The notes under the pieces were generated by a model. The model was not told the origin of the DNA and searched no databases. It worked only from the letters and a program-made list of their open reading frames with translations. A program made the translations under genes and the position numbers. From Cyanidioschyzon merolae (taxonomy: Eukaryota), in assembly GCA_000091205.1 (NCBI GenBank), contig AP006488.2: a DNA stretch of 64,000 nucleotides. One strand, given 5' to 3'. This document shows, one piece after another, positions 1-46,941 of the stretch (the stretch's first letter is position 1; every line of letters begins with the position of its first letter).

Positions 1-1609
1 GGCTCGCCTCGCTGTCATTATAGCTGTGATTGGTGCAGGTGCCCTGGTAGCAGATGGAATCCTGACGCCTGCAATCACGGTGGTCAGTGCCTTTCAGGGT
101 ATTCAGGTTGGGTCGCCTTCATTTCCTACCGGCGCCGTTGTCGGCTTGAGTATCGGTGTGCTTTTTCTCGTCTTTCTGGGCCAGTTTCTGGGCTCATCGC
201 GCCTGGGAATCACCTACGGCCCCGTTCTGGTGGTTTTCTTCGTCGCGCAAGCCATGCTTGGCATGTACGGGATCACAAAGTATCCCGCGATTTTCAAAGC
301 GCTGAATCCGTACTATGCTTTGAAAGGCATCGGCGTATACTGGAATGATGGCAAGGTGGGCTTCCTCAAGATTGCGGACGCGCTGCTCTGTGTGACTGGT
401 TCAGAAGCGATGTATGCAGACATGGGGCATTTTGGGCGCCTGCCCATGCGCCTGGGCTGGTTCACGATCGTGCTGCCGTCGGTTCTGCTGTCGTATTTGG
501 GCCAACTGGCATTACTTGCGTCCAATCCATCACTAGCTGAGACAGCGGGAAACGCTTTGTACTTTTACCAGGCGCCGCGCAGTGTCCTGTGGCCCCTGAT
601 TGTGCTCACGACGTTGGCAGCAATCGTGGCCTCGCAGGCGATCATCAGCGGTGCGTTTTCGATCGTGAGCCAGGCGATTTCCTTGGACCTGCTACCACGG
701 ATGCATATCAAACGCACTGACTGGCGCATTTATGGCCAAGTCTTTATTCCGGAGATGGATCTGGTCATGGGGATTCTAACAGTGGCTGTGACTGCGGGGT
801 TTCAGACGAGTAACGCGCTGACCTCAGCGTACGGTGTGGCTGTCACGACGAGCTTCATCACAACAACATGTTTGTTCGTCATTGTGCTCGTGTTCGTTTG
901 GAAACAGCGCTTCTACGTTTGGCTCAGCTACTTGGCGGTGTTTGGTTTGGTCGACCTCCTGCTCTGGTCGAGTGCCATTACAAAGTTTCCCACCGGCGGC
1001 TATATTCCAGTCATCATCTCTACCGTTTTCATTTTGGCCATGCTTCTCTGGGACTGGGGCACGAAACGAGAACACGAATACTACGAGCGAAAATTACGTG
1101 TTTGGAAAGCACAACAGAGCGAAGGAATTAGACAAGATTCATCGCCGGTGCTCAAGGGTACTTTTGTCTTTCTGGCTGGCTTGCAGCACGGCGTACCGTA
1201 CTCTTTCCAGGTTTTCGTGAGCAAAATTGGTGTGATTCCCCAAACCACCATCTTCGTAACGGTGCGAAACGTTCCAGTGCCGTTCGTCGATGATCATCGG
1301 CGGTTTGTGATTGTGGAGGAGGCACCGGGCCGCTTCCGCGCCCGTATCTACGTCGGGTATGCCCAGTCGATCAGGAGTCTTATGGAGTCTCTACGCGAGG
1401 TACCCGCTGCTTTCTTTCACGAAAGCTTTGGGGAGAAAGTGGTGTTCGTGAAGGGTTACACGGATATTCTCGTGGACTCGCAGCGTCACTGGCTGCACCG
1501 TTTGTTGGTCTACTGCTACCACTACCTGAAGACTATAGCTGCCTCGGTGGACTCGGAACTCGGCATCCCACGAGACCGAGTGGAAATCGGCATGCCGATC
1601 CTTCTTTGA
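1..1609 (+). CDS. KUP/HAK/KT-family potassium transporter, C-terminal ~535 aa. The 5' end lies outside the window and the frame is open from base 2.
   Basis: Strong motif-level similarity across the length to the K+ uptake permease (Kup) family, e.g. TGSEAMYADMGHFGRLPMRLGWFTIVLPSVLLSYLGQ, LAAIVASQAIISGAFSIVSQAISL and the TM-rich core. Position 26 is a GTG, not a real start. Confidence 0.9.
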   Translation, partial: ARLAVIIAVIGAGALVADGILTPAITVVSAFQGIQVGSPSFPTGAVVGLSIGVLFLVFLGQFLGSSRLGITYGPVLVVFFVAQAMLGMYGITKYPAIFKALNPYYALKGIGVYWNDGKVGFLKIADALLCVTGSEAMYADMGHFGRLPMRLGWFTIVLPSVLLSYLGQLALLASNPSLAETAGNALYFYQAPRSVLWPLIVLTTLAAIVASQAIISGAFSIVSQAISLDLLPRMHIKRTDWRIYGQVFIPEMDLVMGILTVAVTAGFQTSNALTSAYGVAVTTSFITTTCLFVIVLVFVWKQRFYVWLSYLAVFGLVDLLLWSSAITKFPTGGYIPVIISTVFILAMLLWDWGTKREHEYYERKLRVWKAQQSEGIRQDSSPVLKGTFVFLAGLQHGVPYSFQVFVSKIGVIPQTTIFVTVRNVPVPFVDDHRRFVIVEEAPGRFRARIYVGYAQSIRSLMESLREVPAAFFHESFGEKVVFVKGYTDILVDSQRHWLHRLLVYCYHYLKTIAASVDSELGIPRDRVEIGMPILL

Positions 1610-3490
1610 GCAGGCCTATAATGGAGCTGCTCGTCGAATGCGGGATTCCATTGTAAAGAGACTTGTTGCGTCTGTCGTTCGCCCAAAGGCGGAAAGCAGT
1701 GCTTTCGTGGAATTGCTCATCGAATGCGGTCTTCGAGCATGCCATGACTTGTTGTATTCTGACGTTCGCCAAACGACAGAGCGCAGTGCCATGGTGGATC
1801 TGCTCACTGAATGCGACGCGAGACTGCGGGGTCGCTTGATGGGTTTGCCTTCCTCTAAAACGCGCAAACTCCGTTGTCCGCAGCGAATTCTGAGTACATC
1901 GTCATTTAAGCCGAGATCGCAGAGCACTTTGCGCACCGTCTGTGTCCCGGCGCGACAGGTCCCCGATCCAGTGCAATTTCGGATGTCCATGGACGCTGCT
2001 TGTGCTGCTCCATACGAAATTGATTATCGCAAAGCACAGATCCAGATGCTCAGCATGCTCCTGTGATGTCGCGTTTTTGTGCCCTGCATCTCTTTTTTCT
2101 CAAAAGTGTGATCATTCCATCGGACATATCATCTGTTCGGAGAATCCGCGAATCAGACGTTCATGCAGACCAGTCGACGCCGCGGAGCATCTCTGGAGGG
2201 TAGGTCGTCCGCGCAGTCATGCATGAATGCGCTCAAGCTTGGATGTATCGTTATCAATGACCTGAAATCACAAGTCCACATGTCTTCCTATCCTGCGCTA
2301 GGGAGGAGCGTCGCGCCCGCGGCCGCCAAGTAACCAAAACATTCACAAGTATTCCGGAAATCGGCGTGCACATTAGCTGAAGAAGAGCTACCACATGCAG
2401 TGCCGCGGAGCGCGCCTGCTGCATGCACTTCGCTCTCGCCTGGCCATTCATCGATGCCTAACGCATTCAACGCATCTTGGGAATCTTTTCCTTTCAAAAC
2501 TGCTTCACAAAGGACTGAGCTTTGGCGCTCGCTCCAGACGGAAGCATCCACTGAGAATGTTCTCGTGACGTTCATTGCACAACGTGGGCTAGACGGATCC
2601 ACCCTCACCCAGTGAAAGCTTCGATACGGTCACCAGTACGATAAAGCCATACCAATACCGGGCTTTTCGCAACGATACACTCCCACTGCTTCCACCACAA
2701 AACGGAGCGAGCCGTGCAGTCGCCGTGTGTGCGCGCTGCGGCACAGACGCGAACGCCAGTCCAGCGCCCTGCCCAGGTCTGCGTACGCTGCGTTGCGATA
2801 CCACCGCTCTGGATGTCTATGTTGCGCGTTCTGAAGGCAGAATTGCAATTTGCTTGCTCATTCAAACCACAGCATGCTCTAAAAGCAGCGTGGCAACCAA
2901 CAAACAACACCGCACGCAGCAATCGTCACCTGCACCGTGGTGTATACACACACGCGCGCGTGAACTGCTACCTGCAGCATAAACTTTGCCGCACCCAACT
3001 ACCAAAGATTAAAAGCTACGCACACGCTCACGCAACCATACCTGTTCTAGTCCATTTCGATACTTGGGGAAGACGAGGCACTGCTTCCCCGTCATCCAAA
3101 TGCCGCGATGCCGGCACGCATGCATGCACATGCAAATGCGCGAAACGCTTTCCCGCCACATCACGCGATTCGCCTGCGATCGCGCTGATGTGGTACTGAG
3201 GCGCGCGCGCGTCCGGCGCTCCCAGCGCAGCGACGACTCCAGAGCGCACCCTGCCCTGCCGAGCCCGGCCCCAGAGGATAGCATCAGCGCCGCTTCCAGT
3301 CGTCAGTGCACCATGCGATGATCGCGCGCAGGCGTCTGTGGATCGCTTGTCAAGCGGCATCGCTTCATGGCAGGTGAGTGTCCAGTTTTGCTTGTCAAGC
3401 GGCGGTACCTTGTTCAGGAGCTGGTTGCGTGAAGCACGCTGCGTGTGTGAGCGGTTACCAGAAACAGGGCTCGCGGGTGGTGAAGGCCTG

Positions 3491-4579
3491 ATGACCCTCC
3501 GCGGTCGCTTTCCGAGTGACGTGTGGCCCGGGCGGAACCGCTTCTACTGTCGAGGCAGGTGCATCAGTGGACCGGACCCCTGGGGTGCCCTGCTAACGTT
3601 TGCTCTGATCGCTGTTGCCACGGGACTTTTTCTCGCGATACCCGTTCCGTTTCTACTGGAAAACTATGTTCGAACGGGAGTTGCTGTGCTAGCGACGACG
3701 CTGCCGCTTCTTGTGGTGACGCTAACGTCGTTCTTCCTGACGGTTTTCGACGACCCTGGTATCCTGCCTCGCCAGAGCGTTGATCTCTTTGCACGGAGAA
3801 TTCGGCGTAACGCGCCGCTTCTTCGGAAGAAGGAGGTGTATTATGACGGTCAACGCTTTGTCTTGAAATACTGCGAGACCTGTCAGCTATACCGACCACC
3901 GCGCTGCTCTCACTGCTCTTCGTGCAATAACTGCGTCGAGCGCTTCGATCATCACTGCCCGTGGGTGAGCAACTGCGTGGGTTTGCGTAACTACCGCACG
4001 TTCTTCATCTTCATATCATCTTGTTTGGTGCTGTCGGGGCTCGTAGTGGCGTACACCATTCTCTACCTGGTGGACGTGTCGAACCAGAAGGTAAGCATCG
4101 GAGCATCGTCGACTGGGTTTGCGGGCTTTGCCCGCTCGCTTTCGAACGGCCCTACCGCTGCGAGCCTGGTCTCCTTAATCATTGCCTTATTTGGTGTGGT
4201 GTTTACGGGCGCGCTTACTGTTTTCCATACGGTGCTTATATTCACGAACAAGACCACTGCTGAGTCCTTTAAGTACACGTTTCGGGGCCATGCTAGTCCT
4301 TTTCAGCCGAAGGGTCTGAAAAATCTGGCCAAGGTGTTGTGTTCGAGGAAGCCCCCGAGCAAAGTTAAGGTGAACGCCCATATTGACCCGAAGTTTCTTG
4401 AGATGATCCTCATTGATCCAAGAGATCTCGAAGCGGCTGCCCAGAATATGGAACTCGATTTGTCTTGGTATCATCCGCTGGATTTGCAAAGAGCACCAGC
4501 GAGTTACAAGTATGATCGAGTGATCTTGCCGGTACCGAATTCTGCGCGGACGTCAGCCGTTCAACAACAAGGCGAATAA
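3491..4579 (+). CDS. DHHC-type zinc-finger protein S-acyltransferase (palmitoyltransferase), plant PAT-like
   Basis: The Cys-rich domain [37 protein letters not shown] is present. The N-terminal [18 protein letters not shown] motif and four TM helices follow the plant PAT pattern. The track start at 3338 is a GTG, and the first in-frame ATG (MTLRG) is at 3491. Confidence 0.85.
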
Positions 4580-8530: not shown

Positions 8531-9389
8531 TTTCAGCGGAAAAGCGTCGAAGAAGCGACGTCGAAAACACGCCCGAGCAACTTGGAAAAACTACGTATGG
8601 ATCCGCAATTTCTCTTTGATGCAATTCGGATATTGAAACTGCAAATGTGAAAAACAATTCGCAAAACAATCGACACGCAGCAACAGAGCAACCACTTCAG
8701 TGTTCCACATTGGTCTTAAACATGAGTGTACTGCCAGAGAGCCCGGCGAGACTCCGAGAACCCGAATTCATAGCCACTCGCGAACAACGTACGGCATCCT
8801 TGTAGCAGAGGTACTGCTTACGGGTCGCGTATCAAAGGTCGCAAACAGAGGCTTTCCTTCACCTCGTCGCCGCCGCGTCCCAGCGAAATTCCACCTGCAT
8901 CGCTCGCGATATTCTAGTTAGAGAGCACCACGCGACCACCAATAATCTTGCTCTTGATTCGAAAAGATTAATGAATGCTATGTGAAATAGATTCCGCGGC
9001 AGTGGCTTCAACAGCGAACGCTTACCAGCTCGTACCTCACTTGCTCAGAGCGCAGTAGCCTTCATGCAACTCAGCGCGCAGCCGGACAAGTTTACCTCTT
9101 TCTTTACTTTCAAGGACAGAAACTGCGTACCTCGCACTTTTCACGTCATCAACAAGCCAATCTCAGCTTGAACTTGAACTTCCAACAGCAGTCATCTGCA
9201 GTCCACAAGACCTCTTTCAACACACACAGCGCCCTTCTGAAGATACCAGCGCTCGATGCGCTGGAGGCATCGGGCACCCGCGCCATCGCGACGATCCTGG
9301 CGTGCTGCTCATCCGTTGGCGCTGCCAGCCCCGAGAGCGTAACCATACGGTTCAGCAGTCCGTTCTGCGCGCCATATCAAGAAGAACGA

Positions 9390-10637
9390 ATGGGCTCTAC
9401 GACTGCTGTACTGCCCGTTGGCAACGCCGATGGGTCGCTAACGCTGACAAAGCACACAGCGACTGAAAAAGAGAGTCGGACGCTGGCGCTGGAAGACGCG
9501 TTCCTGCGGCTGAAACGCTTGCAACGTCACTACGAACTGCTCTGTATCCAAGAGGAGTACGTGAAAGACGAGCTTCGCCATCTTCAACGAGAGTTCGTGC
9601 ACGCCCAGGAGGAGGTTAGACGAATTCAGTCGGTTCCACTTGTTCTGGGAAGTTTTCTGGAAGCTATCGATGAGCACTACGTCATAGTGAGCAGTACAAC
9701 TGGAGCAAACTCGTACGTGCGGTGTCTGTCCACCGTTAATCGTGAACTCCTCAAACCGAACGCTACGGTTGCTTTACATCGCCACTCTAATGCACTGGTA
9801 GATACACTGCCGCCCGAGTCGGACTCGAGCATTGCAATACTAGAGCAGAGCGAAAAGCCCGATGTCACCTATGCTGATATTGGCGGCCTCGATACCCAGA
9901 AACAAGAGATTCGTGAGGCAGTTGAGCTCCCTCTAACAAACCCGGAGCTCTTTCTATCCATCGGCATTGATCCGCCGCGCGGTGTCTTGCTCTACGGACC
10001 ACCGGGTACCGGCAAGACGCTACTGGCGAAAGCAGTTGCGCATCATACAACCGCCGCCTTCATTCGTGTGCAAGCCTCGCAACTTGTGCAGAAATACCTC
10101 GGCGAGGGCCCACGCATGGTTCGTGACATATTTCGTCTTGCCCGCGAAAACCAGCCGGCTATTGTGTTTATCGATGAGATCGACGCGGTAGCAACCAAGC
10201 GCTTTGATGCGCAAACCGGGGCCGATCGTGAAGTGCAGCGCATTCTCATGGAGCTTCTTCAGTGCATGGACGGATTCGATCAACAAGATAATGTGAAAGT
10301 GATCATGGCTACGAATCGGGCCGATACGCTAGATCCAGCGTTGTTGCGCCCAGGGCGCTTGGATCGCAAGATTGAATTTCCGGTGCCAGACCGCCGCCAG
10401 AAGCGCCAAATATTTCAGGTCATCACGGGGAAAATGAACCTCGCCGAAGACGTCGACCTTGAGGAGTTCGTGTCGCGACCAGATCATCTATCCGGTGCTG
10501 CTATTGCTGCGATCTGTCAACAGGCGGGCATGTTGGCTGTGCGCAACAATCGATATGTGGTGCTCCACAAGGATTTCGATATCGCCTACAAGGAGAATGT
10601 CGGTAAGGACGAAACCGAGTTCGCATTTTATCGCTGA
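9390..10637 (+). CDS. RPT5: 26S proteasome regulatory subunit 6A (Rpt5/PSMC3-type AAA ATPase)
   Basis: Walker [26 protein letters not shown]. The stretch [36 protein letters not shown]...[28 protein letters not shown] matches the Rpt5 family closely. The track start at 9168 is TTG, and the first ATG (MGSTT) is at 9390. Confidence 0.85.
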
Positions 10638-11148
10638 ATAACGACACGCGCACAAGCGCCGCAGTGGCTGCTGTGGCGACGCTGGCGCCGTGCTCCACAC
10701 AGATCCACGTTTCAGGAGGTTGAAACCATAAACACATGGGGACCGCTTGACATGAAGCACTCGGACGCCCCTGTCTCCGTCTTGTTCATGTCTGTGATGG
10801 CGATGTTTTCCAGAGCATGTCGAAAGCAGTGGCGTTGCCAGAGGCGCTGTGCAGGGCGCCTTGCCCGGGTTCGAGCGCTCTATTCGCTTAGACGAAAGCA
10901 GGTGCTGGTCGTCTCACAGGGAGCGCTGAGCGCCAGACGCTGTGTCGAAATGTATGCCTGACCCATGAGAAAGACGCAGCGGATAGCGAACCAGTGCTTC
11001 CCTGCTTCAATGCAGGTCTGCTGCGGATCCAAGGCGCACAGCCTCCGTTCTAGCGTGTATACCACGGGGCAGCGCTCGACATCGCTTCGCATCGCTACTC
11101 GAGGGGGTCGCTCGACGCAGAGAGACTATGGAGTCTTTGGCTGAAAAT

Positions 11149-12072: not shown

Positions 12073-12999
12073 CGCTTGACGCTCCGGGTCCCTGGCACTT
12101 ACGGCCTGGGTTCACTCGGAAACCACGAGTTTTTGAAGGCGCAGTCCTGCGCGCTACCGCCTACGTTGAAGCTGGAGGAGCGTTGCGCGTATGGATGTTT
12201 GGTGTCGCCAGACTGGTATCTATCCATACTGGCACACAGTTCGACAGGTGCTCTTCATCGGGTACACAAGCTAAAGTTTGGGTTTCTTCCAATTGTCGCA
12301 AACGCAGGCTATTACGAGCTTATTCTGCAACTGCATCCGTTCGCTTTCTCTTCTTGCTGGATTTACATTCGCCGGTCTCTCCTTCCGTCAAGATGCGATG
12401 TCGGCGGTCGAGGGTTATTGACGGCAACGTACAAGTGCTGATTACGTCGCTCATCGCCGTGGTCAAAGCATCTCATGCACAGACGAAAAGTCGCGATCAA
12501 CGCCTCGCTTGCCATTTCCATTGTCTTGTTCGTGCCCAGCGTTGGTGCGCTCTTCACTGCCGCGACACATGGCGGTGTGTTCAGATGCTGTAGCATATCG
12601 TGCATACCGCTTCAACGAATGGCCGTCCCGTGGCGCCTGAACGCTTGCTTCATCGTTCGGTACATGCTGGTGAAGATTGCTGAAGGCGCTCTACGATACG
12701 CACTTCCGTTTCCGTAACTGGTGGTGTACCCTACACGCACACGGGCTTGATGTGGGCGATGCCCTCGGCGAGTACGGCGTCCGCTGCAAGCGCACGCTCG
12801 TCTATTCGATCGAGGAGTTCTGAAACGCAATATTCTCCATGATAAAACACGCACCGGGAGCAAGTTCCGGACTCGAGAAGACGCCATAAGGCCTCAACCC
12901 GTGTTGGCAGCCTTCGTGCCAAGCGGTAACGCGCTGTCCACTGTAAGCGATCGCAGCGTTGCCTGAGGTCTGAGTTCAAGATTCTTTTCCATGCAAGTG

Positions 13000-13500
13000 G
13001 AACAAAAGGAAGCCTCTTGGTGAACAGCCCGTACGAGATATCATGCTGCTGCTGTTGAATGCAGTTTCATCGATGTCCGCGAAGCGGTTAGATTCTCTCT
13101 TTCGAATGGACTCCATTATTTGACATGAAAAGCCCGGTAAAATTTTGGCAGGTACTTGTGAACAAGCCGACAAGAGACGAGGTCGATTTTCTGTTCCATT
13201 TCAATCCAGTTGGATGCGTTGCTGCGCCAACGAGATGACTTGAAACACAATGTTCTAAAACTTCAAGCACGGGTGATTTGAGCATGCTACGAGTAAGGAC
13301 GGGAAACGAATGGAGGCTTCTGCGAAGGCGATGGATAATGATATCGGTTATTTTATGAACCCTTGTTGGAGGGTGTCGCGAACCATCTTGGTGACGATGG
13401 CGAAACGAATTTCAGCGTGGAGAGTCGACGGATCCACTCCAAAAACATAACCGAGAATACTAAAATTACACACGAATCCGCAAGCACTTGTTCCAGCACC
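13000..13500. repeat. Old, decayed copy of repeat family R (tail portion)
   Basis: ttcgaatggactccattatttgacatgaaaag...cttgaaacacaatgttctaaaacttcaagcacgggtgatttgagcatgct aligns to the tail of copy 2 (29690-29800). Confidence 0.6.
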
Positions 13501-16500
13501 TCGAGCGTCGAGGATGGACATGTGAAAAAATTCGAAAAAAATCGAAACGTTTCAGCCTTATCAACCAGAAGGTGCAGTTGCCAATGATCAGCGGACGATT
13601 GCGCTCCGGACAGTGGCACAATCGACACCTGCACCACGTGGCCAAGTATCCGCATGTCGAAGGTGCGATTCCCAATACGTCTGCCTATGGACACTTCACC
13701 CATACTGGTCTGTGCGAACTCGAGCCCTGAGAGACCCGCACTCTGCCTATCTACATGGTCGCAACAATCGCCAAGAATAGGCTAGCGCCGCTCGTTCCAC
13801 TCAGAGCAGTGAATCCCGGAACATCTGTACCAGCAGGCGGTTTTTTGTCTAACAAAGAGAGTCTCTATGAAGGTTGGAGAATGGTCGCGGAAAGACTTTG
13901 TGTGCGCACTGCTAGCTTTGGAGAAATGGCCTCACTTGTGCAAATCAGCTATTCGTCGGTCAGCTAGTGAGTGATCCATCCCTCTGCTCGTTCATATCCC
14001 GAATGCAGTACACCAAAAACTGAACTTGCCAAACTCTAGGCCAACGACTCTTCCCTCGACAATCTATTCCAGTCCAAATGCTCGCACCGTAATGCCACCA
14101 AAGATGCAATTCCATGTAAACTTTCGGTAACGTTTCCTCGAGCGGAGCTGAAGAGACGCGGATGGATCAAGAAACAGGCACGCCTCAACAGGAGACCGCA
14201 CCATTTCGAACAATACACAACAGATTCTGTATAGAAATGCGAATACTTTTCGTGGAAGCGACGGGCGTTCATCTCGCATGATGACAAATTCATCGATGAC
14301 CAATGCGAGACTTGTATAGACGTTGCCGTAGAGGGGCAAGCCGCTGTTTGTGAAGAAGAGTCAAGCGAGCATTCCGACAACGTCAGTTCTCGCGACGATT
14401 CAATACTGTGGTCGCCCATGAATCGCAACACAGAAAGCAGCGCTCAGCACCTGATCCTCCGTTGAAACACGCCTCGAGTTCCATCTTTTCGTGTCCTTCT
14501 CCTGGGCAATATCTCTCAGTCCATCACTGATGTCGGTCGGGGGGCGGGGGCGCGGTTTGTAGCTGCTCTTCGTGCTAGCACACGCTCGCGGGTTCCATCC
14601 GCTTAAAGACGTCGTATAGGATTTCAAACGCCATTTTGATCTACCGGAAGAACAGACGAGTCGTACGTAACCGTGTTACAGAAGTTCTTCGACAAATCAC
14701 TCTTTGTGTTCACCAGAACCGAATCCATGCATTGATTCTCCGCTCATTGGCAGCTGAGAAGGGAAAGGTGCGCTCCGGTCTGGGAGCGGGCATGCGATGG
14801 CTAAGGCGACGAAAAAGCACTTGAGAAACAGTGCGTACATTCAAAGAGAAGACGAGTTTCAGGCACGTCGAGCGATCAGTGCGTCTGAGTGCCAAGAAAG
14901 AAAACGTATACAGCGTATCATGAAAAAATCCACGCTACCTAGCCGAGTAAGCGAAAAGGCAAAGATGTCGAAGCCGAAAGAGATGCAACCACACGTCAAA
15001 GCAGAGAAATAGCTTCCCTAAAAGATGACGAGTTCCGACGGGAACGGAGCACCTTCCGATCGGAAAGATCATTGTTGGACCGCTGTCAACGCCTCACCAA
15101 TAAATCATATCCATTGGGAGAATCCTTGAAGGCGTCAGGCACACGACGCCATTAGAGATCGCGTAGCTTCTTACGCGCACAAGTCTTGCCTATTTCGTCT
15201 TGTCTTGGTGCACCGCGCCACGCGACGCTTCGGTGGAGTTCCAGACACGGGCGGCAAGCTCTCGGCATTTCTCTGGATTTTTTTCGGATCAGACCTTCGT
15301 GCGAGAACACCACTTATGCTCCGGATAGAAGGCGCAACACGGCCTGTTCATAGGATTCCGGATGTACTCGCACGCTTCCCAGAATACCTTGACACATTAC
15401 CGCGCCACCTCGGCGATCTGAGGATCGACAACGCAGATGCCAGAAAGTACGGAACTACATTCAACATACCAAATTAGGTTCAGTGTCGAGCGCTTCACGA
15501 AACACCTCCCATGCGCATTGTATCCTCACGTCACATACGCGATAAAATACGGATGGATGGACGGGATGCTTAGCGGGTCGATGGAGGAAAATGACGAGCG
15601 ATTGGCGGCAAGAGATCGAGGTGGTAGCGAGTTCGGAACTGATGTGCCAGCGATAGGGAGTATCGCTTCAGGTAATCCAAGCTCGTCGTGTTGCCGTCAG
15701 CCTCGGGTCGGCGGATTTCGTACCGAAAAGGATCGTTGAGACGCAACGCCTACCTTGCTTGCATCTACGGTTCCATGTTTCGCTGAGCAGATCTTCCCAG
15801 AGCAGACCAGAGCAGATTCCATCAGACCGTCGCCTCGAATCCAAGCGCCGTAGCCTCCGAAATCGCCAAGTGGATGTGCTCCCAGCACCTCAGATGGAAG
15901 CCCAGTCGATCACCCGAGACGCTTCTGCTCTGTACTGTATCGCATCTTCAGTGAGCTACAGCTGGTCTGTCTGCGCGCAGCTATTCCGCATTCCACTATA
16001 GAGGCTAAGAGCATTGCAGAGCTCGTTCAAGGCTCCTCGTGTACGGAGAAGGAATGGAACGAATTCTACAGTGCCGATGGAGCTCGCTGGAATACAAATC
16101 CGCATGTACTTGTGAGATCGAGGCCCAAGTCAAGCGATGCGACTCGGTCTCAGCCAAAGAAGACATATCAAGAGAGAAACATCATGGTGGGCCCGGATCC
16201 CCAGGTCTGAGAATATCATGACGGTTGTCGTACCTCTGAATCGAGAGAACGTATCGAGGGATATGCAGGGAATGCAAACGAAGCTACTCAGCTTTTCCCG
16301 GGCTCGATTTCACCCAGGAATGGGCATGATGAATGCGAGAAGGCACACGAAAACTGGAAAGACGGCGTCAGGGACCAGACCCCGGTGCTCTGAGCACACT
16401 GTCCTGCAGACGAGGATGCTTTGTGTGCTGCATTCAGAGAGAACACGAGCGTCCAAATGGCGTATGTCGACGATCTCTGGCAGAAATACCTGCGGACGCA

Positions 16501-18076
16501 CGGGAATGGCCAACGATTTTCGGCGTACAGGGGCAGGACGCGAGTATTCAGCGACTTGTTTCATGAACAGGAAAAGAAATACGACGGATCGTTCGTCTCG
16601 TTGGGTGACGGTACCCTATGGCGCAAGACGTGCTGTGGCGCTCGTGGGCTGCACGCCTGCTCCTCTGACGAGAACGTAGAACGAGTGCAGGAAACGATTC
16701 TGTACGACGCCTGTCGATGAGTTACGGCCAACAGAGAAACGTCACGAGCACGAGTGCCCGTTGAAACAGCCAGAAACGAAGCGCTTGAAACAGAGCACGA
16801 TGGACGAGATGGGGTACGGCATGCCGAGCGGACGTCTGCTTACGAGGCAGTCAGATGCATGAGGCTCGCAATGTTGCGATACAGTCGCCAACAAGGTATG
16901 CAAGCGCTTTCTGTGCCAAGACTTGGACGCCTCAATCAACACCCGAAAAAGTCGAGTGCTTTCGGAGCGTCCTGCGGCTCTGTGTCAAGCGAAAATTCCT
17001 GGTAATCGTTTCGTATTCTTTGTCGGCATTGCGCTGAAATGCTGAAGACTCCGGATTGAAAAAACTCAGTGGCCAGGAGAGATGGCATTAGATTCTCGCC
17101 CGGAGCGAGGCACTGTTGTGGTCGAGCGCATCCATCGAGCGAGGTAGCAGCGTCGTATGTGTATACTGCGAACGTTTTACCTCGGCAGTGATGTCATGAT
17201 CATGGTGTTCCATTATTCGGCGTTACCAAGCATATGCGTCTCTTTACAGAGTCGTGAAATCCAATCCCTTGATCCTACTCCCAGCGGGACTTGCATGCCT
17301 AGTGGTCGGTTCGAAAACAGTCTCCCATGTCTCTTTGCGATCATGTCACAAGGATGAACCAATCTATGTGCAGGCGTTCATTCCGAAAGCAACAGTGTCG
17401 GTCCTTAGACGAATTTTCGAATCCGGTCGCCTCGTCCGATACAGCGCTGCGTATGCGCGACGATATTGATATCAGTGTTTGCATAAGAAAATCATATCAT
17501 TTCCACCACTTCCGGTTCAGGTATAAAACGTCGGTATGAGGAATCTGGTGCCCATCATCGCAAATGGTCGCGTAACGAGTTCCCGCCGACGACCTGAGGC
17601 ACAGTGCACGGGCCATGCTCCATCGGTGTCGCGTATTGCACCAGTTACGAGCACGAGAAAGCACTATCCTTCCATGACATGGTGGCAGTGCGCATGTGCC
17701 CGGGTCTGTTCTGACGCTTTCAGGGTCGCAACAGGAACGCAAGGCCCCGTCCCGTAATCCACCGACCGCAAAGCTGCCTTTGTTCCATAGTGGGAGCCTT
17801 ACAGGATCCAGTGCGTCCTGTCCGTGCCTCGGGGATATCTTGGAGCCGGACGGATCGGCCGTACCCGCAAGCGTCACAAAGCCAGCACGGAAACTGTACG
17901 AGGAATCCCATAGATTCTGCACCAGACCCGACACACTGGCATGAATCCGCTGACAGCATCAGTGTTCCCGAACAGCACAACAACGATCCGTTGGGTATTG
18001 TGTACCTCGACTGCACGGTTCACCTTGCAGCGAGCTCGCGCGTTTGTACCGAGTGTCTATCCGCTCGTCCCGCATC

Positions 18077-19865
18077 TCAATTGTTTGCCGAGTTCTCCGA
18101 AACTGCGTGCACCTCGGGGCGTACAAAGGGATACGCAAAATCGGGAAAGAACCATCCACGGCGTGCGTCCTCCTTGAACGGCCTTATAGGCACTGGCAGA
18201 CTTTGAACCGCCTCGCGCATCTCCCGCAACAGTTCGGAGACATCAGGACCTTCAAAGATGATTTCCGCGACCCAGTCCGGCATCCCATCCTCGGGGCCGG
18301 TGACCTTGGCACCGGCCTTCGCAAGGTAACGTTTCAAACGGCAGTGCGCGTACTTGTCAAGACCCTCGAGCCAATCGCTACGCTCCACAATACCTGAATA
18401 CGGAGCGTTAACGGCTGCCTGTGCGAAGCAGACGAGGGGCTCTGGCGGCATCCGCGGACGGATGGGAATTCCGAGCGCAGTCATGATGTGTTCTTCGACG
18501 AGATCAACGCCCCAGGTGCGCAAGTTTGCGTCACGAACGCACATACCTCCCATGCGGGCGTTGACTTCTATCAAACGCGGTCCTCTGGAGGTGTACTTCA
18601 CTTCAACGTGGAAGGCCCCATCTGTGAACCCCAGCGCTCGGAGTGTCTGCGATGCGAACGCTTTCAGCTCCGCCTGTTTTTCCTCCGGGTACAGCGAGGG
18701 AATGTTCATGCCAGTCTCCTGGAACCAAGGCTCCCAGCACGCCCAATTATCGGACAGGGAGGCGTAGACAACCTCACCCTTCGACATGAGCGCATCGACA
18801 TCGAATTCATCGCCATCGTAGAACTCTTCGAGCAGCAGATCCGTGCCCTGAGTCCAGATTGTATCAAGATGAACATCCATTGTCGCACGGATCGCCCGAA
18901 ATGTGTCGACCAGCTCATCTTGACTCGACACTTTATGCACGCCCATGGAGGCTGCGCCAAACGCAGGTTTCAGGATTGCCGGGAAGCCCACATGCTGACC
19001 CGCAGGCTCCAGATCCACCACATCGGTGATGCGGTAGCATTTGGGCGTCGCCAAACCATGTTGTCGCATGATTTCCCTGGTGACATACTTGTTCCGAGCT
19101 GCTTGGCAGGCGGCGCTCGGGTTTCCAGGCAAGTTCAGAGCTTCTGCCAAACGGGCAACCACGGCAACTGCGTCCTCATAAAATGTGGCCACAGCGTCAA
19201 ACGTTATTCCGGAATCAAGAATAGCATCGACTGCACGCTCAAAAAGGGTGTTGTAGTCTGTAAAATCCAATTCAATGTAGGACTCGATGACGTCCTCGTC
19301 GACGAGGCATTTCGCCCAGCTGTCAGGGCCATCCAGAATGCTAACTTTGACCCCAAGTTCCTTCAAATGTTCAAAGATAAATCGCTTACCACTGTATCCG
19401 GCCTGGAAAATGAGAACCTGTGCACCTCTGAGCAGCTTCCGCCGAATAGCCTGAGCTTCGGGTGTATCTCGCTCTAGGAGCTGCGGTTTGACGTGCGGAA
19501 AGTTACTGAATACTGGCGAGAAGTCCATCGGACTCGCCCCACTTCTGCCGAACTTCAGTCGACTGAGAAGAGAGGGAGAAAATGACTCGCCACTGCCCCG
19601 TGCGAGCACTGCTTTTGGCACCAGAAAGTTTGCCGATTGGAGTGAGCGTGCGAGCTCCTGGCCCTGGTCCTGCTGGCGGCCGCTGCGCGCACTCCCTGGT
19701 GCGTCCAAGCTGCCGCTGATCATAACCTCTAGCTCTGCGACGCCAGGTACCCGCTCGATCGCTGTCGACGGCAGCTTCCGCTTATTGAGCAAAAAGTCGA
19801 CACTGTCACCGGCACTGCCTACCGGCTCGCGATACTGCGCGAGAGACTCGGTGAAGGAGCTCATG
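18077..19865 (-). CDS. ATP-grasp enzyme, carnosine synthase / L-amino-acid ligase-like (595-600 aa)
   Basis: ATP-grasp core FPAILKPAFGAASMGVHKV...LLLEEFYDGDEFDVDALM...FHVEVKYTSRGPRLIEVNARMGG, preceded by a pre-ATP-grasp region of about 250 aa. The track start is a non-ATG codon, and the first ATG is about 5 codons in (MSSFTESL), near 19863. Confidence 0.75.
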
Positions 19866-22377
19866 AGCACGACTGTCACAATGTACTACTTTGAAGTGCT
19901 CCCCAATCCAGCCACTTTAGCCGTGCTATGTGCACTCCCAGGATCCGGGATCGTCTAAAGTGGACCGAATGCCCCTTGACGAAATATCCTGCACCCAAAA
20001 CTCTGCTCTGCGGTGCTGCGCAAATGTCAGCCGCAGAGGCTACGAGCAGGAAACTCGCTCCATCATCGCCGCCGCTGGTACGCAGGATCGACTCAGATTC
20101 GTCGATCAGTTCAACGGTTGCTTTCTGATCGCGGCGGCGGCGGGCGCACGAGCGGTCTACGTGCAACGCTGCGATCAGCGAGATGTGACGATGCGGTGCT
20201 GCAGCGCGTCACATCTGCTGCAGCATGCGCATCACCGGAGGACGCTGGCCTACGGAAACGTTTTGTCCATGAAAAAGATCTGCTGCTGCATCGGATTGCA
20301 GCAGCTATTGTCTTTCACCAGGATTCTGTTCCACATCCAGTAGCGTGGCATCAAATGCTTTTCCGCGGTTCATAGCAGATATGTTCGAAGTGTGTTTATT
20401 TGGAGAAACAAAAGATCCATGGCACAGGAATAGACGTGGATGTCGGGCATCCTGGAGCGCTGTCATCGATGATCGCCAGAATGAAACGGAAAAACCCTCT
20501 TTTCGCCGACTATGGAGCGAAGGAGAGGAAGAGCAACAAGGGGAGATGCACGAGAAGCGGTGCTTGCACAGCGGGACGGTGACTAAACTGTAGAGGCACA
20601 GAGCGCACGAGTTCAAGGAATCCTTGCATTGGTGCGTTCAACAGTGGCAAAAGACGCATGGAGTTCATCAACCGAGACTGTAACGCCGCTGTGAATATCA
20701 TACAATGAGTGGCGTTGTAGACGAGACCCGAGGAGCTAGCGAAATCTAATTTTATTCGGCAAACTCTCAGGCTCGAGAGGTGCCTTGATAAACTGAAACC
20801 GAAAGCAGGCGGTCGGTCGAAAAAGTTGGGAGACGCCTGCGTATGGGTATTCATTTACCCACCATGGTTGTGGGATATTTTTCGTTCTATCAACGATGTC
20901 TTTCTCGTCGATGGACCATGGGCAAGCGTGTTTAGCTCATCTGGAGGTTCGCGGTTGCACAGGCCCGACCGGAGCCCGAGTTAGGGGGCCTCTTCTCGCT
21001 GGCGGACACGTCTACATAGCACCCGACGAGCAACGTCTAGCGGATGAGAGTCGTTGCCTTTTGGTAGCGCACAGCGAGCGATAAGCAGAGGAAGGTGCCA
21101 GTTTTACGCATGGACCTGAAACGGTGCTCGCGCAATGCTCGGAAAAGCCTCACAGAATATCGGCAAGTGTTCGTTCGTTCATTCAGCGTTTGGAATTGAT
21201 GAGGCTCTGGATACCTGTGTCTCCCAGTGGTTTCCAGAGAGTCGGGGCATGTGTTGTGTTCTTTCCCAGCCGTGTCTTCATCCTCGCGGATTCTGCCGAG
21301 GGGCGCGCTTCACGTCGGAGCGCGGTAGCTTCCGCGCCATCCCGGGCAACACGGAATTCGTTCTGCTGCTGTGGTGCATTCGCCGCTGGAGTGTCGACCT
21401 GTTCGGCACTGTGTTTCTTTCGTGCCGCTCTGTCTCGAAACGCTGTGTCCTGTGCGAGTCGGCAGCCTCCATCGACGGAATGTTGAGGTCGACTCTCGAG
21501 CGACGCTTCACGCACGGTCGTGCACTTGAAAAAACACTTCATTAACGTTCGGCGAAGCATCATGCTCGCATGCAACTCGTGAATAACATTTTGCCAACGA
21601 GAAATATCTCAGCGGTTTGCCGAAAGTATTTCTCATTTCGAAACGCGGTGGAATTGAGTGCTGCAGCCAGCCATATTGAAGCGCTGTAATGGGAACGCGC
21701 TTTCAGAGGCACGTGCACGGGCAAGAGAGCCTCTTCGGTGCTCTACTTCTGGTCGAGCACCAAGAGCACGACACTTGAGCGATGTGACGGCGGACGGATG
21801 ACACCCGTTGCATCCGGCCACGGTAACGCTACTGGATAAAAGTAGTGGCATGATGTAGACAGAATATGGAATTACAGCATACCCACCGCCATAGTGAGAT
21901 GCGGGACGCTTAGTACGGAAAAGTTACGCATGTACTACTTCCTGTGCCACAAGCAGACTTTCTGTCAAGGTACGAAACGCTGCGTACCTACATCTTTCTC
22001 CTGGACGCGGCGAACGAGGTATCTGCAGATGCGAGCGCACGCACTTCCATTGCAGCCAGCACATTATCGTCCATATTTGCGCGATCTATCCAAAATGAAG
22101 GCAATCTTCGCTGTCGCGTGTCTGTACTGAGAGGCAAAGAGCAAAGCCCAATTCCTAGGCGAGCACGCTTCTGGTATTTATGACGGCGACGGCAATCGTT
22201 TTGCAGAGATACCGACTTACGCGGGGGTATATCCGACGCCGCGGGGAATGGTTTAGACGAAATCGCGTGTACAGCAGAAACGTATCGATATCCTGGACCA
22301 CAGGCATTTGGGTGTGACAGCTGCTGCTGCTGCCGAGTCCAAAACGCCGCTATGTTGCAGTGAGGCTCCCAGCCACC

Positions 22378-23793
22378 TCATGAGGTCACAGGCGGCAACC
22401 TGTTTTTCCCGTGGATGAAAAAGCAGTATGGATGACGATACCGATACTCATGCCAGCGATACGGTTCGTTTCCGAGATTGTGAATAAACTCGATCTGGGC
22501 AAAATACTGCAGTCGAAATGATCGATCCCAGAACTCCTCTGTGCTGGCAAAAAGCTGCCGATCAATCGCAACATCAAACGCCGCAGAGCGGTGACGATTC
22601 CAGACTCGCCACAGCCATCGACAGAAATCCAAGTCACCTACTCGATAGAGCGCATTTCCGTTCATCTGCGTTCGATGCGCATCTTGGTGGTACTGCAGTC
22701 GCCAGGAGATGCGTGCATCCAGGTTGGTGCTTCGCAGCGGAGAGCCCAGCATCCACAGACGACGAGCATCCGCGAGCGCTACGATCCGACGAAGCGCATC
22801 ATTGTACTGCGCTTGCACCGCATTGCAGTCTGGTTCGCACCAAAACAAGTATCGTACTCGGGGTAGACTCGTGGACTCATGTGGACCACTAAAGATGCTT
22901 CGCTGCGATGACTGTCGCCCCAGGGACAATCGATGGAAGCGCAGCGCCCTGTGTTCCGTGTTCATCCAGGGCTCTGCGGAGCGTTCAGCCGGCTTGCCGC
23001 CAGCGGCGGCCAGGCTCAGAGCAAACACCAAAGGATAGAACATACTGCCGGTGCCTGCAGAGTCACGTTCGGAAAGCCATGAGCTAGGCCTGTAACGATC
23101 AGCAGTGCTGTCCAGACGCGCCTCGATGAGGTACACACCATGATCCAAACAGGAAGGCCATGTTGGAGCTGTCGCTTTTCGGAGCGCGTCGACGACACGA
23201 AGGTAGAGGTCGCTATCCCAGATTGTGTTGATATAAAACGCCAACACTGTTTGACTCGAAGTGCGCTCTGCAGTCTCTACCGGGCAAGCTAGTGGAAGAT
23301 TCCAGTGAATCCACCGCTCAACTGCCTCGAATTGATGTTTTGCAAACGGCACAACAATCACTTGCCCACGGGCATGCGTCTGCCGCATCGACGACGACCT
23401 ATCCATCGAAGATCGCTTCATGGAATCAGGAATATCCTCGCTTACTCTCCGATGCAGAATGTGTTGAGGCGTTAGAAGAGTCCATGGAAAGCTCTCGTTG
23501 AACCAGGCGTTACCAGGTGCTACCATGAACGCGTTTCGGGGCGTTGCGGCGTTCCATGGACTGCTCCCGTTATACCATGCAGTCGCAGTCGCCGGTCCCT
23601 CGCTGCCGCTAGACTGCAGAACGGCATATGGTGATAGGAGACGCACCATACCCCACTGCTTATCGCGCTGGTCAAGGTTTCGGTTCTCTATACCCGCCAA
23701 GTCGTGCGTGAACAACCCCGCGCGGTGAAAGAAAAGGATTCGCGTCAGCAATATCTTACACAGTTGTAAGAAAACACGCCAGCAGCGCTTCAT
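22378..23793 (-). CDS. Hypothetical signal-anchored (type II membrane) protein, possible Golgi glycosyltransferase-like; function unassigned
   Basis: 471-aa ORF with real ATG. N-terminal hydrophobic anchor WRVFLQLCKILLTRILFF. N-x-S/T sites. Trp/Arg-rich luminal domain. No family recognised. Confidence 0.5.
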   Translation of the reverse strand: MKRCWRVFLQLCKILLTRILFFHRAGLFTHDLAGIENRNLDQRDKQWGMVRLLSPYAVLQSSGSEGPATATAWYNGSSPWNAATPRNAFMVAPGNAWFNESFPWTLLTPQHILHRRVSEDIPDSMKRSSMDRSSSMRQTHARGQVIVVPFAKHQFEAVERWIHWNLPLACPVETAERTSSQTVLAFYINTIWDSDLYLRVVDALRKATAPTWPSCLDHGVYLIEARLDSTADRYRPSSWLSERDSAGTGSMFYPLVFALSLAAAGGKPAERSAEPWMNTEHRALRFHRLSLGRQSSQRSIFSGPHESTSLPRVRYLFWCEPDCNAVQAQYNDALRRIVALADARRLWMLGSPLRSTNLDARISWRLQYHQDAHRTQMNGNALYRVGDLDFCRWLWRVWNRHRSAAFDVAIDRQLFASTEEFWDRSFRLQYFAQIEFIHNLGNEPYRWHEYRYRHPYCFFIHGKNRLPPVTS

Positions 23794-45795: not shown

Positions 45796-46941
45796 ATGTG
45801 GCCAGAAACACTCAGCGAAACACCGCTCTGGAAACGGGTACGTTTTGAGGAGCGCTTGTCGATATCTCCAGCTGTGCTGCAAGGTCCAAAAACTGTCTTC
45901 AACGCGATCTACCGCAGTCTATTCAACCGACTTTTTCGTTACGACCCGCTTCTGCAGGGAACCGTGGTGTCGTTGCGTGCGGTACCTGGCGCCGCACTGG
46001 ATCCACTGCACAAGCGTCGGGCAAACACGTACACCGCTGCAGAACCAAAACTCGACCTAGAGGTTACGGATCGAGGGTTTTTCCATGTTCGGCTCCATGT
46101 GGAGGCTCTTGTTTTCTCTCCGCCGGTGGTTGATGGCGAAGCATCGATCGTTGTGAAGAATGGAACCCGGACGCGGCAGCTTCCTCGATTGTATGGTCGA
46201 GTCGTATTTCTCGGCACGCGGCATGTTGCACTACGAGTGTTTGGTATTTTTCACGCAGCCATTAGCGTGGATGATTTTCCGGGAGAATATCGACGAGAGC
46301 ATGACCGATGGATACCGTTAGCAGTAGATGCCCCAGGTGTCGACTTATCGGAGAAACAAGTTCGTGTCGGGGACGTGCTCTGTTTTGAGGTGAAAGATCT
46401 CCAGCACGCGTCCAATGGTATCTTTGTGATCCGAGGAGGGGTTCCCGTCCCCGATGCAAACTGCGTGGAGACGACGCCGGCCCCGGGAGCACCACAAGCT
46501 GATACCACAACGCGCCCTCTAGAGTATACGCTTCCGGATTACGAGGCACTTCACGATGAGTTACTTCGGAACCAAGTCGAGCGATTCCTCACGGCTGCCT
46601 GGCGCGCGTCGACGCTGGGCGACCATGTGGACATCGCGACGTTCCAGGAGCTTGTGAGCCTGGAAATACCAGGTCACGATGGAGCTGCAAAGCTACCACG
46701 AACCACGACAGATACGGAGACGAATCTGGGGGTTATCAGACTCACTGCGGACGCTATTGACCGCGAAATCATATGGGACGCTGATAGCGATAGCATTTCC
46801 GAAAACAGCACCGCTCACGAGGATCCGTCGGCGTCGAAACTCGAAGCCCTATCCGGAGAGTTCTTCACATTGGGGAACGCTGACTCGGACCCGCTGGCAG
46901 AGCTTGTAGCTGCTTCACGTGGGCACCCCACAGTCGGGTAG
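45796..46941 (+). CDS. Putative Rpb7/RPA43-like RNA polymerase subunit (tentative); acidic C-terminal tail
   Basis: Real ATG. Rpb7-N-like FHVRLHVEALVFSP followed by S1-like VRVGDVLCFEVKDLQHASNGIFVIRGG. Assignment by pattern only. Confidence 0.4.
   Translation: MWPETLSETPLWKRVRFEERLSISPAVLQGPKTVFNAIYRSLFNRLFRYDPLLQGTVVSLRAVPGAALDPLHKRRANTYTAAEPKLDLEVTDRGFFHVRLHVEALVFSPPVVDGEASIVVKNGTRTRQLPRLYGRVVFLGTRHVALRVFGIFHAAISVDDFPGEYRREHDRWIPLAVDAPGVDLSEKQVRVGDVLCFEVKDLQHASNGIFVIRGGVPVPDANCVETTPAPGAPQADTTTRPLEYTLPDYEALHDELLRNQVERFLTAAWRASTLGDHVDIATFQELVSLEIPGHDGAAKLPRTTTDTETNLGVIRLTADAIDREIIWDADSDSISENSTAHEDPSASKLEALSGEFFTLGNADSDPLAELVAASRGHPTVG

Follow-up and report, generated by a model that had tools for sequence, protein, structure and literature searches.

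A predicted L-amino-acid-ligase-type ATP-grasp enzyme encoded in nuclear DNA of the red alga Cyanidioschyzon merolae

The 64,000-nt stretch of Cyanidioschyzon merolae DNA analysed here (contig AP006488.2, referred to below as the window) carries on its minus strand a gene for an ATP-grasp ligase, and the questions raised by this locus are what such an enzyme joins, whether it is a carnosine synthase and how it came to be encoded in an alga. An original prediction made from the sequence had described a 600-aa single-exon ATP-grasp gene of the L-amino-acid-ligase (Lal) or carnosine-synthase-like type, and this description was borne out by Pfam, NCBIfam, PDB sequence and Foldseek evidence. Judged from its sequence and modelled fold, the gene product is an ATP-grasp enzyme of the Lal type. 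We consider it likely that it is a catalytically competent, probably cytosolic, ADP-forming amide ligase of a distinct, vertically inherited subfamily. This subfamily appears to be common to chlorophytes as well and closest to ligases of Chloroflexota, Elusimicrobiota, Actinomycetota and Vicinamibacteria.

The ligase gene and its product

The uninterrupted open reading frame (ORF) at 18077..19879 (-) comprises 600 aa when counted from a GTG codon and is preceded by an in-frame stop eight codons 5' of this GTG. The first ATG is found at 19864 (context GTGCTCATGAGC) and gives a protein of 595 aa. In the C. merolae cluster most database proteins have 595 aa and start with MSSFTES, a start also conserved in the Cyanidiococcus-like and Cyanidium orthologues, and the ATG at 19864 is the likely start of the gene. 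The 595-aa protein is 100 % identical to BAM79459.1 / XP_005535745.1 of C. merolae 10D, annotated as 'hypothetical protein, conserved'. The gene aligns with its orthologues from end to end as one exon; it is real and intact. Its features are as follows:

18077..19864 (-), complete ligase coding sequence (CDS), ATG at 19864-19862, 595 codons plus TGA at 18079-18077, single exon
19865..19879 (-), five additional GTG-side codons of the mechanical ORF, probably untranslated 5' leader
19460..19864 (-), N-terminal extension, residues 1-135, predicted to be disordered, with short conserved motifs
19124..19372 (-), ATP-grasp N-terminal (pre-ATP-grasp, Rossmann-like) domain, PF18130 at 1.2e-10, predicted local distance difference test (pLDDT) score 86-93
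18533..18988 (-), ATP-grasp core with the central and C-terminal nucleotide-binding subdomains, PF13535 at 7.6e-25
18743..18754 (-), SDNW loop, residues 371-374; D372 and N373 are common to CARNS1, W374 is Gly there
18545..18568 (-), EVNARMGG motif, residues 433-440, invariant among 22 homologues
18197..18406 (-), C-terminal beta-rich domain corresponding to L-amino-acid-ligase C-terminal domain 2 (LAL_C2), pLDDT ~90, within the 424-column superposition on 3VOT
18125..18154 (-), C-terminal tail motif WFFPDFAYPF, residues 571-580, consensus FFFPxxxHPF, red-alga-specific

The Pfam search (residue ranges in the 600-aa numbering) identified PF18130 ATPgrasp_N at residues 170-252 (1.2e-10), PF13535 ATP-grasp_4 at residues 298-449 (7.6e-25) and a weak, sub-threshold LAL_C2 match at residues 492-561 (E 0.077); the homologous region of the bacterial relatives matched LAL_C2 at 1e-11 to 8e-12. 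The order of domains, ATPgrasp_N followed by the ATP-grasp core and Lal C-terminal domain 2, was that of the Lal group. Part of what had been predicted as a long pre-ATP-grasp domain was recovered as an ordinary ATP-grasp N-domain, but the remainder proved to be a predicted disordered extension of approximately 135 aa. Database searches with the protein gave 743 homologues at E <= 1e-5, the best matches having E = 0. Among PDB sequences (phmmer) the best match was the L-amino acid ligase BL00235 (3VOT) at 4e-33, and BacD was matched at 2e-17; the best specific local matches in NCBIfam were the dipeptide ligases DdaF (2e-20) and BacD (2.8e-16).

In the alignment of 22 red-algal, green-algal and bacterial homologues K299 (in ILKP), E346, E347, D350, H419 and E421 were invariant, as were E433, N435 and R437 of the EVNARMGG motif. 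All the nucleotide- and Mg2+-binding residues of the ATP-grasp superfamily and its catalytic Arg are present in the ligase, and in analogy to other ATP-grasp ligases E433 and N435 would serve as Mg2+ ligands and R437 as the catalytic arginine. The catalytic motifs could be aligned with those of BacD and BL00235, EVNARMGG falling against LIESAARFAG of BacD. The SDNW loop is a candidate for the substrate-specificity loop.

An AlphaFold2 model made from the same 22-sequence alignment had a mean pLDDT of 76, with approximately 90 in the core and values below 50 for residues 1-94 and 106-119. The model adopted the three-subdomain fold of the ATP-grasp superfamily. Foldseek placed 3VOT at the top (E 2.7e-31, template modelling (TM) score 0.86 on the target, root-mean-square deviation (rmsd) 3.3 A, 424 columns), followed by BacD and RizA, with biotin carboxylases and PurK/PurT clearly worse; there were 481 PDB matches at E <= 0.001 and all 50 rows listed were ATP-grasp enzymes. 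Since the signature residues are invariant, the motifs align with BacD and BL00235 and the predicted fold is Lal-like, the ligase appears to be competent for catalysis and to belong to the Lal structural type.

BL00235 of Bacillus licheniformis and the Lal group enzymes BacD/YwfE and RizA share with the ligase the three-domain ATP-grasp fold, the additional C-terminal Lal domain and the catalytic Lys, Glu, Asn and Arg at equal positions. The identity between BL00235 and the ligase is 25 % only, and the Bacillus enzymes have neither the disordered N-terminal extension of 135 aa nor the conserved C-terminal tail of the algal protein. Unlike them, the algal ligase is nuclear-encoded in a eukaryote. 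The Bacillus Lal genes are parts of antibiotic or dipeptide clusters.

Carnosine synthase and other identities considered

An ATP-grasp sequence of animal CARNS1 was used solely as bait and only the retrieved database entries were analysed. It retrieved sequences of Macaca (99 % identical to the bait), Saguinus, Myotis, birds, paddlefish, salmonids and molluscs as well as protist sequences labelled K14755. The ligase showed 32 % identity to macaque CARNS1 over 302 aa (BLASTP E 4e-44) and 24-29 % to the CARNS1 clade in the trimmed alignment. In a neighbour-joining (NJ) tree (57 sequences, 403 columns, 200 bootstraps) the CARNS1 clade was recovered in 200/200 replicates, whereas a group of red algae with CARNS1, or of red and green algae with CARNS1, was recovered in 0/200. 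On clade-specific hidden Markov models the ligase reached 198 bits for animal CARNS1 and 227 bits for the whole CARNS1 clade, whose true members scored 650-1111 bits; it reached 445 bits on the Chloroflexota model, 487 on that of green algae and 678 on that of mesophilic red algae. As far as sequence comparison goes, CARNS1 is the closest characterised homologue of the ligase, and the ligase is its distant paralogue and not its orthologue.

CARNS1 (ATPGD1, EC 6.3.2.11) contains a Lal-type ATP-grasp module homologous to that of the ligase and, in addition, an N-terminal domain of roughly 300-385 aa which the ligase does not have. A profile of the CARNS1 N-terminal region (385 positions), run with filters off, gave <= -1 bit on the ligase and on all red and green orthologues; on the Elusimicrobiota fusion proteins described below, used as a positive control, it scored 120-160 bits. 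Because this domain is absent, the architecture of the ligase is not that of animal carnosine synthase, contrary to what had been predicted. Within the shared core, 31 conserved positions are identical between the ligase and the CARNS1 clade, including D372, N373 and ExNxRMGG, and EVNARMGG is the same in that clade save for V434 replaced by I. Five positions are conserved within each clade yet different between them (ligase/CARNS1: A232/C, W374/G, H419/N, V434/I, P529/E), and of these W374 and H419 of the ligase, facing a conserved Gly and Asn in CARNS1, are situated near the active site.

Proteins of 1000-1700 aa in which a CARNS1-type N-terminal region precedes a Lal-type ATP-grasp module were observed in Elusimicrobiota at the following bacterial loci:

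L070:5791-8823, Elusimicrobiota fusion protein
L043:4311-9269, Elusimicrobiota fusion protein
L012:5910-9305, Elusimicrobiota fusion protein
L013:1123-5880, Elusimicrobiota fusion protein
L015:5607-9260, Elusimicrobiota fusion protein
L020:4257-9353, Elusimicrobiota fusion protein
L036:159-5060, Elusimicrobiota fusion protein

Their matches to the CARNS1 N-terminal profile had E-values of 1e-39 to 1e-52 and covered nearly all 385 positions, and therefore the full two-domain CARNS1 architecture exists in bacteria. Pfam gave only a faint YheC/D-type ATP-grasp signal on this N-terminal region.

The names carried by the orthologues in databases are in conflict with each other (P0001, P0002, P0017, P0031, P0102, P0249). 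Those of Porphyridium, Gracilariopsis and Auxenochlorella are called 'Carnosine synthase 1', JGI uses 'carnosine synthase' or 'biotin carboxylase', and the Trebouxia orthologue is named 'glutathione synthetase ATP-binding domain'. These names are automatic transfers and none of them was supported by the analyses.

That the ligase could nevertheless make carnosine (beta-alanyl-histidine) or homocarnosine in red algae despite its distant paralogy is suggested by CARNS1 being its closest characterised homologue, by the SDN loop and E[VI]NxRMGG motif common to both, by the names 'Carnosine synthase 1' or K14755 given to orthologues in several databases, and by carnosine having been reported from red algae (Tamura et al. 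1998, cited in PMC10629481). The separation of the two clades in every bootstrap replicate, the identity of 24-29 %, the profile scores far below those of members, the lack of a domain that Elusimicrobiota proteins possess, the exchanges W374 to G and H419 to N and the automatic origin of the names nonetheless make this activity unlikely. A protein- or peptide-modifying enzyme resembling RimK, tubulin-tyrosine ligase (TTL) or cyanophycin synthetase is still less probable. NCBIfam gave weak local matches for the RimK family (1.4e-11, 44 bits) and for cyanophycin synthetase (2e-07), and the conserved disordered termini could serve as docking sites, but the matches were limited to the generic ATP-binding half and far from the cut-offs (143 bits for the RimK family, 877 and 850 for the two cyanophycin synthetase models). 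The whole-chain structure was closest to the Lal enzymes BL00235, BacD and RizA, and the bacterial relatives are paired with transporters of small molecules or peptides. Neither a Mur-ligase nor a TTL domain was detected in the Pfam search of the ligase, whereas cyanophycin synthetase combines ATP-grasp with Mur-ligase-type domains in ~870-930 aa; its models were matched by the ATP-binding part only, at 27-30 bits vs cut-offs of 850-877.

A biotin-carboxylase or carbamoyl-phosphate-synthase-type paralogue deserves hardly any credence. This identity draws on the JGI name 'biotin carboxylase' for the identical protein, a Pfam CPSase_L_D2 match of 24.7 bits and the occurrence of biotin carboxylases in the Foldseek list, but BL00235 superimposed with TM 0.86 and rmsd 3.3 A and these enzymes with TM 0.5-0.65 and rmsd of 6-9 A, the score on the biotin carboxylase model of NCBIfam was 24.5 bits vs a cut-off of 739, and the Pfam search gave no match to Biotin_carb_N or Biotin_carb_C. 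The biotin-carboxylase identity is effectively refuted.

Distribution, descent and bacterial relatives

Red-algal homologues with 45-83 % identity in the database search were found in a Cyanidiococcus-like genome, Cyanidium, Galdieria, Porphyridium, Timspurckia, Rhodosorus, Compsopogon, Purpureofilum, Hildenbrandia, Chondrus, Gracilariopsis and Agarophyton; every red-algal class sampled has an orthologue. Homologues with approximately 40-50 % identity are present in Chlorophyta: Chlamydomonas (CHLRE_13g582800, P0118), Volvox, Gonium, Dunaliella, Haematococcus, Tetradesmus, Monoraphidium, Chlorella, Micractinium, Auxenochlorella, Coccomyxa, Trebouxia, Myrmecia, Ulva, Pedinophyceae and Pyramimonas. 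The architecture had been thought unusual in the green lineage, which its presence in so many chlorophytes and in all sampled red-algal classes contradicts. The gene is kept in the colourless green algae Helicosporidium (P0257, P0272) and Prototheca (P0293); a further non-photosynthetic match (P0255) has an incomplete name ('Polyt') and probably comes from Polytomella. A family member is also carried by a Euglena transcript (P0296). Together with the retention in colourless green algae this indicates that the role of the ligase is not tied to photosynthesis. No land plant occurred among the best 120 matches to a green-algal query, which is weak evidence of absence.

Tandem ligase modules were observed in prasinophyte-type proteins (P0133 of Pyramimonas parkeae, 1076 aa; P0046, 802 aa; P0005; P0230). 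ATPgrasp_N, ATP-grasp_4 and LAL_C2 are each found twice in them and both modules are complete. The two Pyramimonas modules are mutual closest relatives (100 % bootstrap), which indicates a lineage-specific tandem duplication.

In the trimmed alignment the ligase was 52-88 % identical to sequences of red algae, 41-50 % to those of green algae and 41-46 % to those of Chloroflexota. The NJ tree recovered red-algal monophyly in 198/200 replicates and placed Cyanidioschyzon, the Cyanidiococcus-like sequence and Cyanidium together. Judged by this tree, the gene is inherited vertically within Rhodophyta, and with its chlorophyte orthologues it is a member of a distinct, uncharacterised subfamily. The original prediction had raised the possibility of horizontal acquisition and had named ordinary vertical descent as speaking against it; vertical descent is what the phylogeny with CARNS1 gave for the red algae. 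The codon-usage comparison that it had proposed gave no foreign signal either: the GC content at third codon positions (GC3) was 0.62 vs 0.54-0.65 in 13 neighbouring ORFs, and the correlation of relative synonymous codon usage (RSCU) was 0.71 vs 0.57-0.80 for neighbouring ORFs. With orthologues across red and chlorophyte algae and neighbour-like codon usage, the ligase is thus neither unusual in algae nor a recent transfer. A recent transfer into Cyanidioschyzon, considered separately, was excluded by the GC3 and RSCU values and the red-algal monophyly, and is also contradicted by the orthologues that Cyanidium, Galdieria and every sampled class of mesophilic red algae possess and by the species-tree-like topology.

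Only an ancient acquisition is left of the horizontal proposal, and transfer from bacteria into the ancestor of red and green algae can be entertained tentatively. The closest non-algal relatives are bacterial (Chloroflexota with 41-46 % and Elusimicrobiota with 39-43 % identity), the algal clade is nested among four bacterial phyla in the NJ tree and land plants are missing from the best 120 matches mentioned above. The best 80 prokaryotic loci include no cyanobacterium, so a plastid origin is not indicated. The prokaryote scan rests, however, on two peptide patterns only, and neither direction nor timing is settled by a tree with deep bootstrap values of 50-60 %. Because the grouping of the algae with Chloroflexota and Vicinamibacteria was weak (105/200), as was that of red with green algae (116/200), an ancient bacterial origin suggested by these sequences is rated as possible only.

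The prokaryote scan, made with one genome per species and the two peptide patterns, gave 112 relatives, of which the best 80 are described here. Nearly all of these 80 belong to uncultured Chloroflexota (Anaerolineae, Caldilineaceae, Promineifilum), Elusimicrobiota, Actinomycetota (Acidimicrobiia, Gaiellales, Thermoleophilia) and Vicinamibacteria, and none to Cyanobacteria. Most showed 34-44 % identity over residues ~130-560; a few with 27-30 % came from Gammaproteobacteria, a metagenome-assembled genome (MAG) of Magasanikbacteria, a Woesearchaeota genome and one divergent Elusimicrobiota genome. Overall, the closest non-algal relatives are uncharacterised bacterial ligases with 34-46 % identity. 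Those of Chloroflexota, Actinomycetota, Vicinamibacteria and Elusimicrobiota have the same domain order as the algal ligase, LAL_C2 included, but Elusimicrobiota versions have a CARNS1-type N-domain that the algal ligase lacks, and in Chloroflexota (Anaerolineae, Caldilineaceae) a folded STAS domain takes the place of the algal disordered extension. With the naive ORF finder used, this N-terminal STAS domain appeared either fused to the ligase or as a separate small ORF.

A transporter of the MFS_1/MFS_3 type with a C-terminal cyclic-nucleotide-binding (cNMP) domain, ~560-610 aa long, adjoins the ligase gene, frequently with overlap, in 14 of approximately 35 loci and is a frequent operon partner in Chloroflexota and Actinomycetota. 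A GAF-histidine kinase adjoins the STAS-ligase in locus L077, and at single bacterial loci a peptidase M3, a peptidase M28 or an OPT oligopeptide transporter is found nearby. In the Elusimicrobiota neighbourhoods no conserved substrate-supplying gene such as a decarboxylase was seen. The bacterial context fits a regulated, small peptide-like product carried across the membrane, and bears on the algal enzyme indirectly. The features concerned are:

L019:6241-7992, MFS-cNMP transporter
L030:6190-7974, MFS-cNMP transporter
L009:9358-11148, MFS-cNMP transporter
L077:9388-11223, MFS-cNMP transporter
L023:5468-7273 and 9165-10997, MFS-cNMP transporters
L077:7614-9422, STAS-bearing Chloroflexota ligase
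L008:7521-9341, STAS-bearing Chloroflexota ligase
L023:7287-9125, STAS-bearing Chloroflexota ligase
P0100, STAS-bearing Chloroflexota ligase
L009:7394-7792, small STAS ORF, Chloroflexota
L010:323-817, small STAS ORF, Chloroflexota
L007:5-334, small STAS ORF, Chloroflexota

Proposed activity, termini and surroundings of the gene

In ATP-grasp chemistry a carboxylate is converted by ATP into an acyl-phosphate, which is attacked by an amine to give an amide, ADP and Pi. In the ligase, ATP-Mg2+ would be held between the central and C-terminal subdomains by K299, E346/E347, E421, E433 and N435. Phosphorylation would convert the carboxylate of the first substrate, a small molecule and most likely a free amino acid, into the acyl-phosphate. 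This would be attacked by the amino group of a second amino acid or by another amine, with R437 stabilising the transition state, and the products would be a dipeptide-like amide, ADP and Pi. We infer free amino acids or closely related amines as substrates, and the enzyme most likely joins two amino acids.

The N-terminal extension contains the motifs DFxLNxRxxP (residues 23-32), SL[RQ]xANF (74-80) and SPVF (116-119), after which the helix EAQxLRRKLLRG comes. A set of 56 homologues, most of them red-algal, conserves these motifs, which can also be recognised in green algae; in the 22-homologue alignment the extension is missing from the bacterial relatives. The C-terminal tail is conserved in red-algal homologues and missing from green-algal and bacterial ones. 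Residues 1-60 include eight Asp/Glu, making the N-terminus acidic, and mesophilic red orthologues have nearly no presequence, their first motif being located almost at the start. As the N-terminus is unlike a transit peptide, the ligase is probably cytosolic. Targeting to the plastid or mitochondrion was considered and is unlikely in view of the eight acidic residues in 60, the conserved MSSFTES start and the near absence of a presequence in mesophilic red algae.

A regulatory role, probably exerted via phosphorylation, is most likely for the 135 disordered residues at the N-terminus, since their motifs are conserved, a STAS domain occupies the same position in Chloroflexota and a phosphosite of the Chlamydomonas orthologue is sensitive to TORC1, a target-of-rapamycin (TOR) complex. 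According to a preprint (bioRxiv 10.1101/310102), this orthologue, Cre13.g582800, is among five proteins with a phosphosite drop of at least 5-fold on TORC1 inhibition.

Several observations weigh against the proposed identity, location and regulation. The LAL_C2 match of the C. merolae protein is below threshold, and all NCBIfam equivalog cut-offs were missed widely (DdaF 73 vs 840 bits, BacD 59 vs 850). Sequence alone permits no substrate assignment. The cytosolic location is deduced solely from an N-terminus without presequence character, and the TOR link from one phosphosite of a green-algal orthologue in one preprint. The gene context comes from high-GC MAGs with naive ORF calling and from relatives at 34-46 % identity, and need not extend to algae. 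The deep nodes of the NJ tree, both for red with green algae and for algae with the two bacterial groups, are weak.

The prediction that the ligation specificity is uncharacterised holds. The literature search found no paper on the algal ligase family, the C. merolae protein or its accessions; that on the algal family, Cre13.g582800 and the C. merolae TOR proteome or phosphoproteome gave only the TOR-phosphosite mention and the red-algal carnosine citation. The ligase is an already annotated, functionally orphan member of a known enzyme class. As C. merolae is a genetically tractable model red alga, the function of this conserved ligase is directly testable. The inconsistent names of its orthologues enter algal metabolic reconstructions and lead to predicted carnosine synthesis; a separate clade without the CARNS1 N-domain corrects this naming.

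More speculatively, the red and green algal clade and its STAS-fused and MFS-cNMP-linked bacterial sisters may define an unrecognised system of regulated synthesis of a dipeptide-like metabolite, a proposal that we regard as rather doubtful. Under the same doubtful proposal, nearly all red and chlorophyte algae would contain the metabolite, and even the colourless parasites Helicosporidium and Prototheca would have kept it. Nutrient (TOR) signalling would switch its synthesis via the disordered N-terminus, and the enzyme would have neither carnosine synthase activity nor any known Lal specificity. A new widespread algal dipeptide under TOR control would, if true, be a finding of real interest to those who study how algae handle nitrogen or stress.

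The neighbours of the ligase gene, as identified by ORF and Pfam searches, encode a proteasomal AAA ATPase, a Methyltransf_8 protein, an Hsp70-family protein, an adaptin, a DHHC palmitoyltransferase, DXS and a PEMT-domain protein. They are ordinary eukaryotic nuclear genes, and the setting is red-algal (Cyanidiophyceae) nuclear DNA. The algal nuclear context predicted from the sequence was confirmed by the identity to the C. merolae 10D protein and by the proteasome ATPase, adaptin, Hsp70-family, DHHC and DXS neighbours; the lineage is red, not green. The region is 99 % identical at the nucleotide level to hot-spring metagenome contigs, three of which (L001, L003, L004) are collinear with the window at this identity.

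A fourth metagenome contig, L002, encodes a ligase protein (P0001) with a one-residue difference. Its positions 1-4008, which carry an FKBP_C gene, have no match to the window upstream of the ligase gene. L002 either stems from a strain with a rearrangement or is a chimera produced by assembly.

No tRNA or Rfam element was found near the ligase gene. A 329-aa ORF at 18488..19477 (+) falls wholly within the ligase CDS and was rejected as a shadow ORF of GC-rich coding sequence. The 471-aa ORF at 22378-23793 (-) of the window has no Pfam match, and neither has its counterpart on the collinear contig L001, where it is likewise called as a gene; no Pfam match was obtained for the 381-aa ORF at 45796-46941 (+) either. 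Downstream of the ligase gene, positions 12600-18000 of the window (~5.4 kb) contain no ORF of at least 250 aa, no tRNA and no Rfam match; this is a long interval without a large ORF for the compact C. merolae genome.

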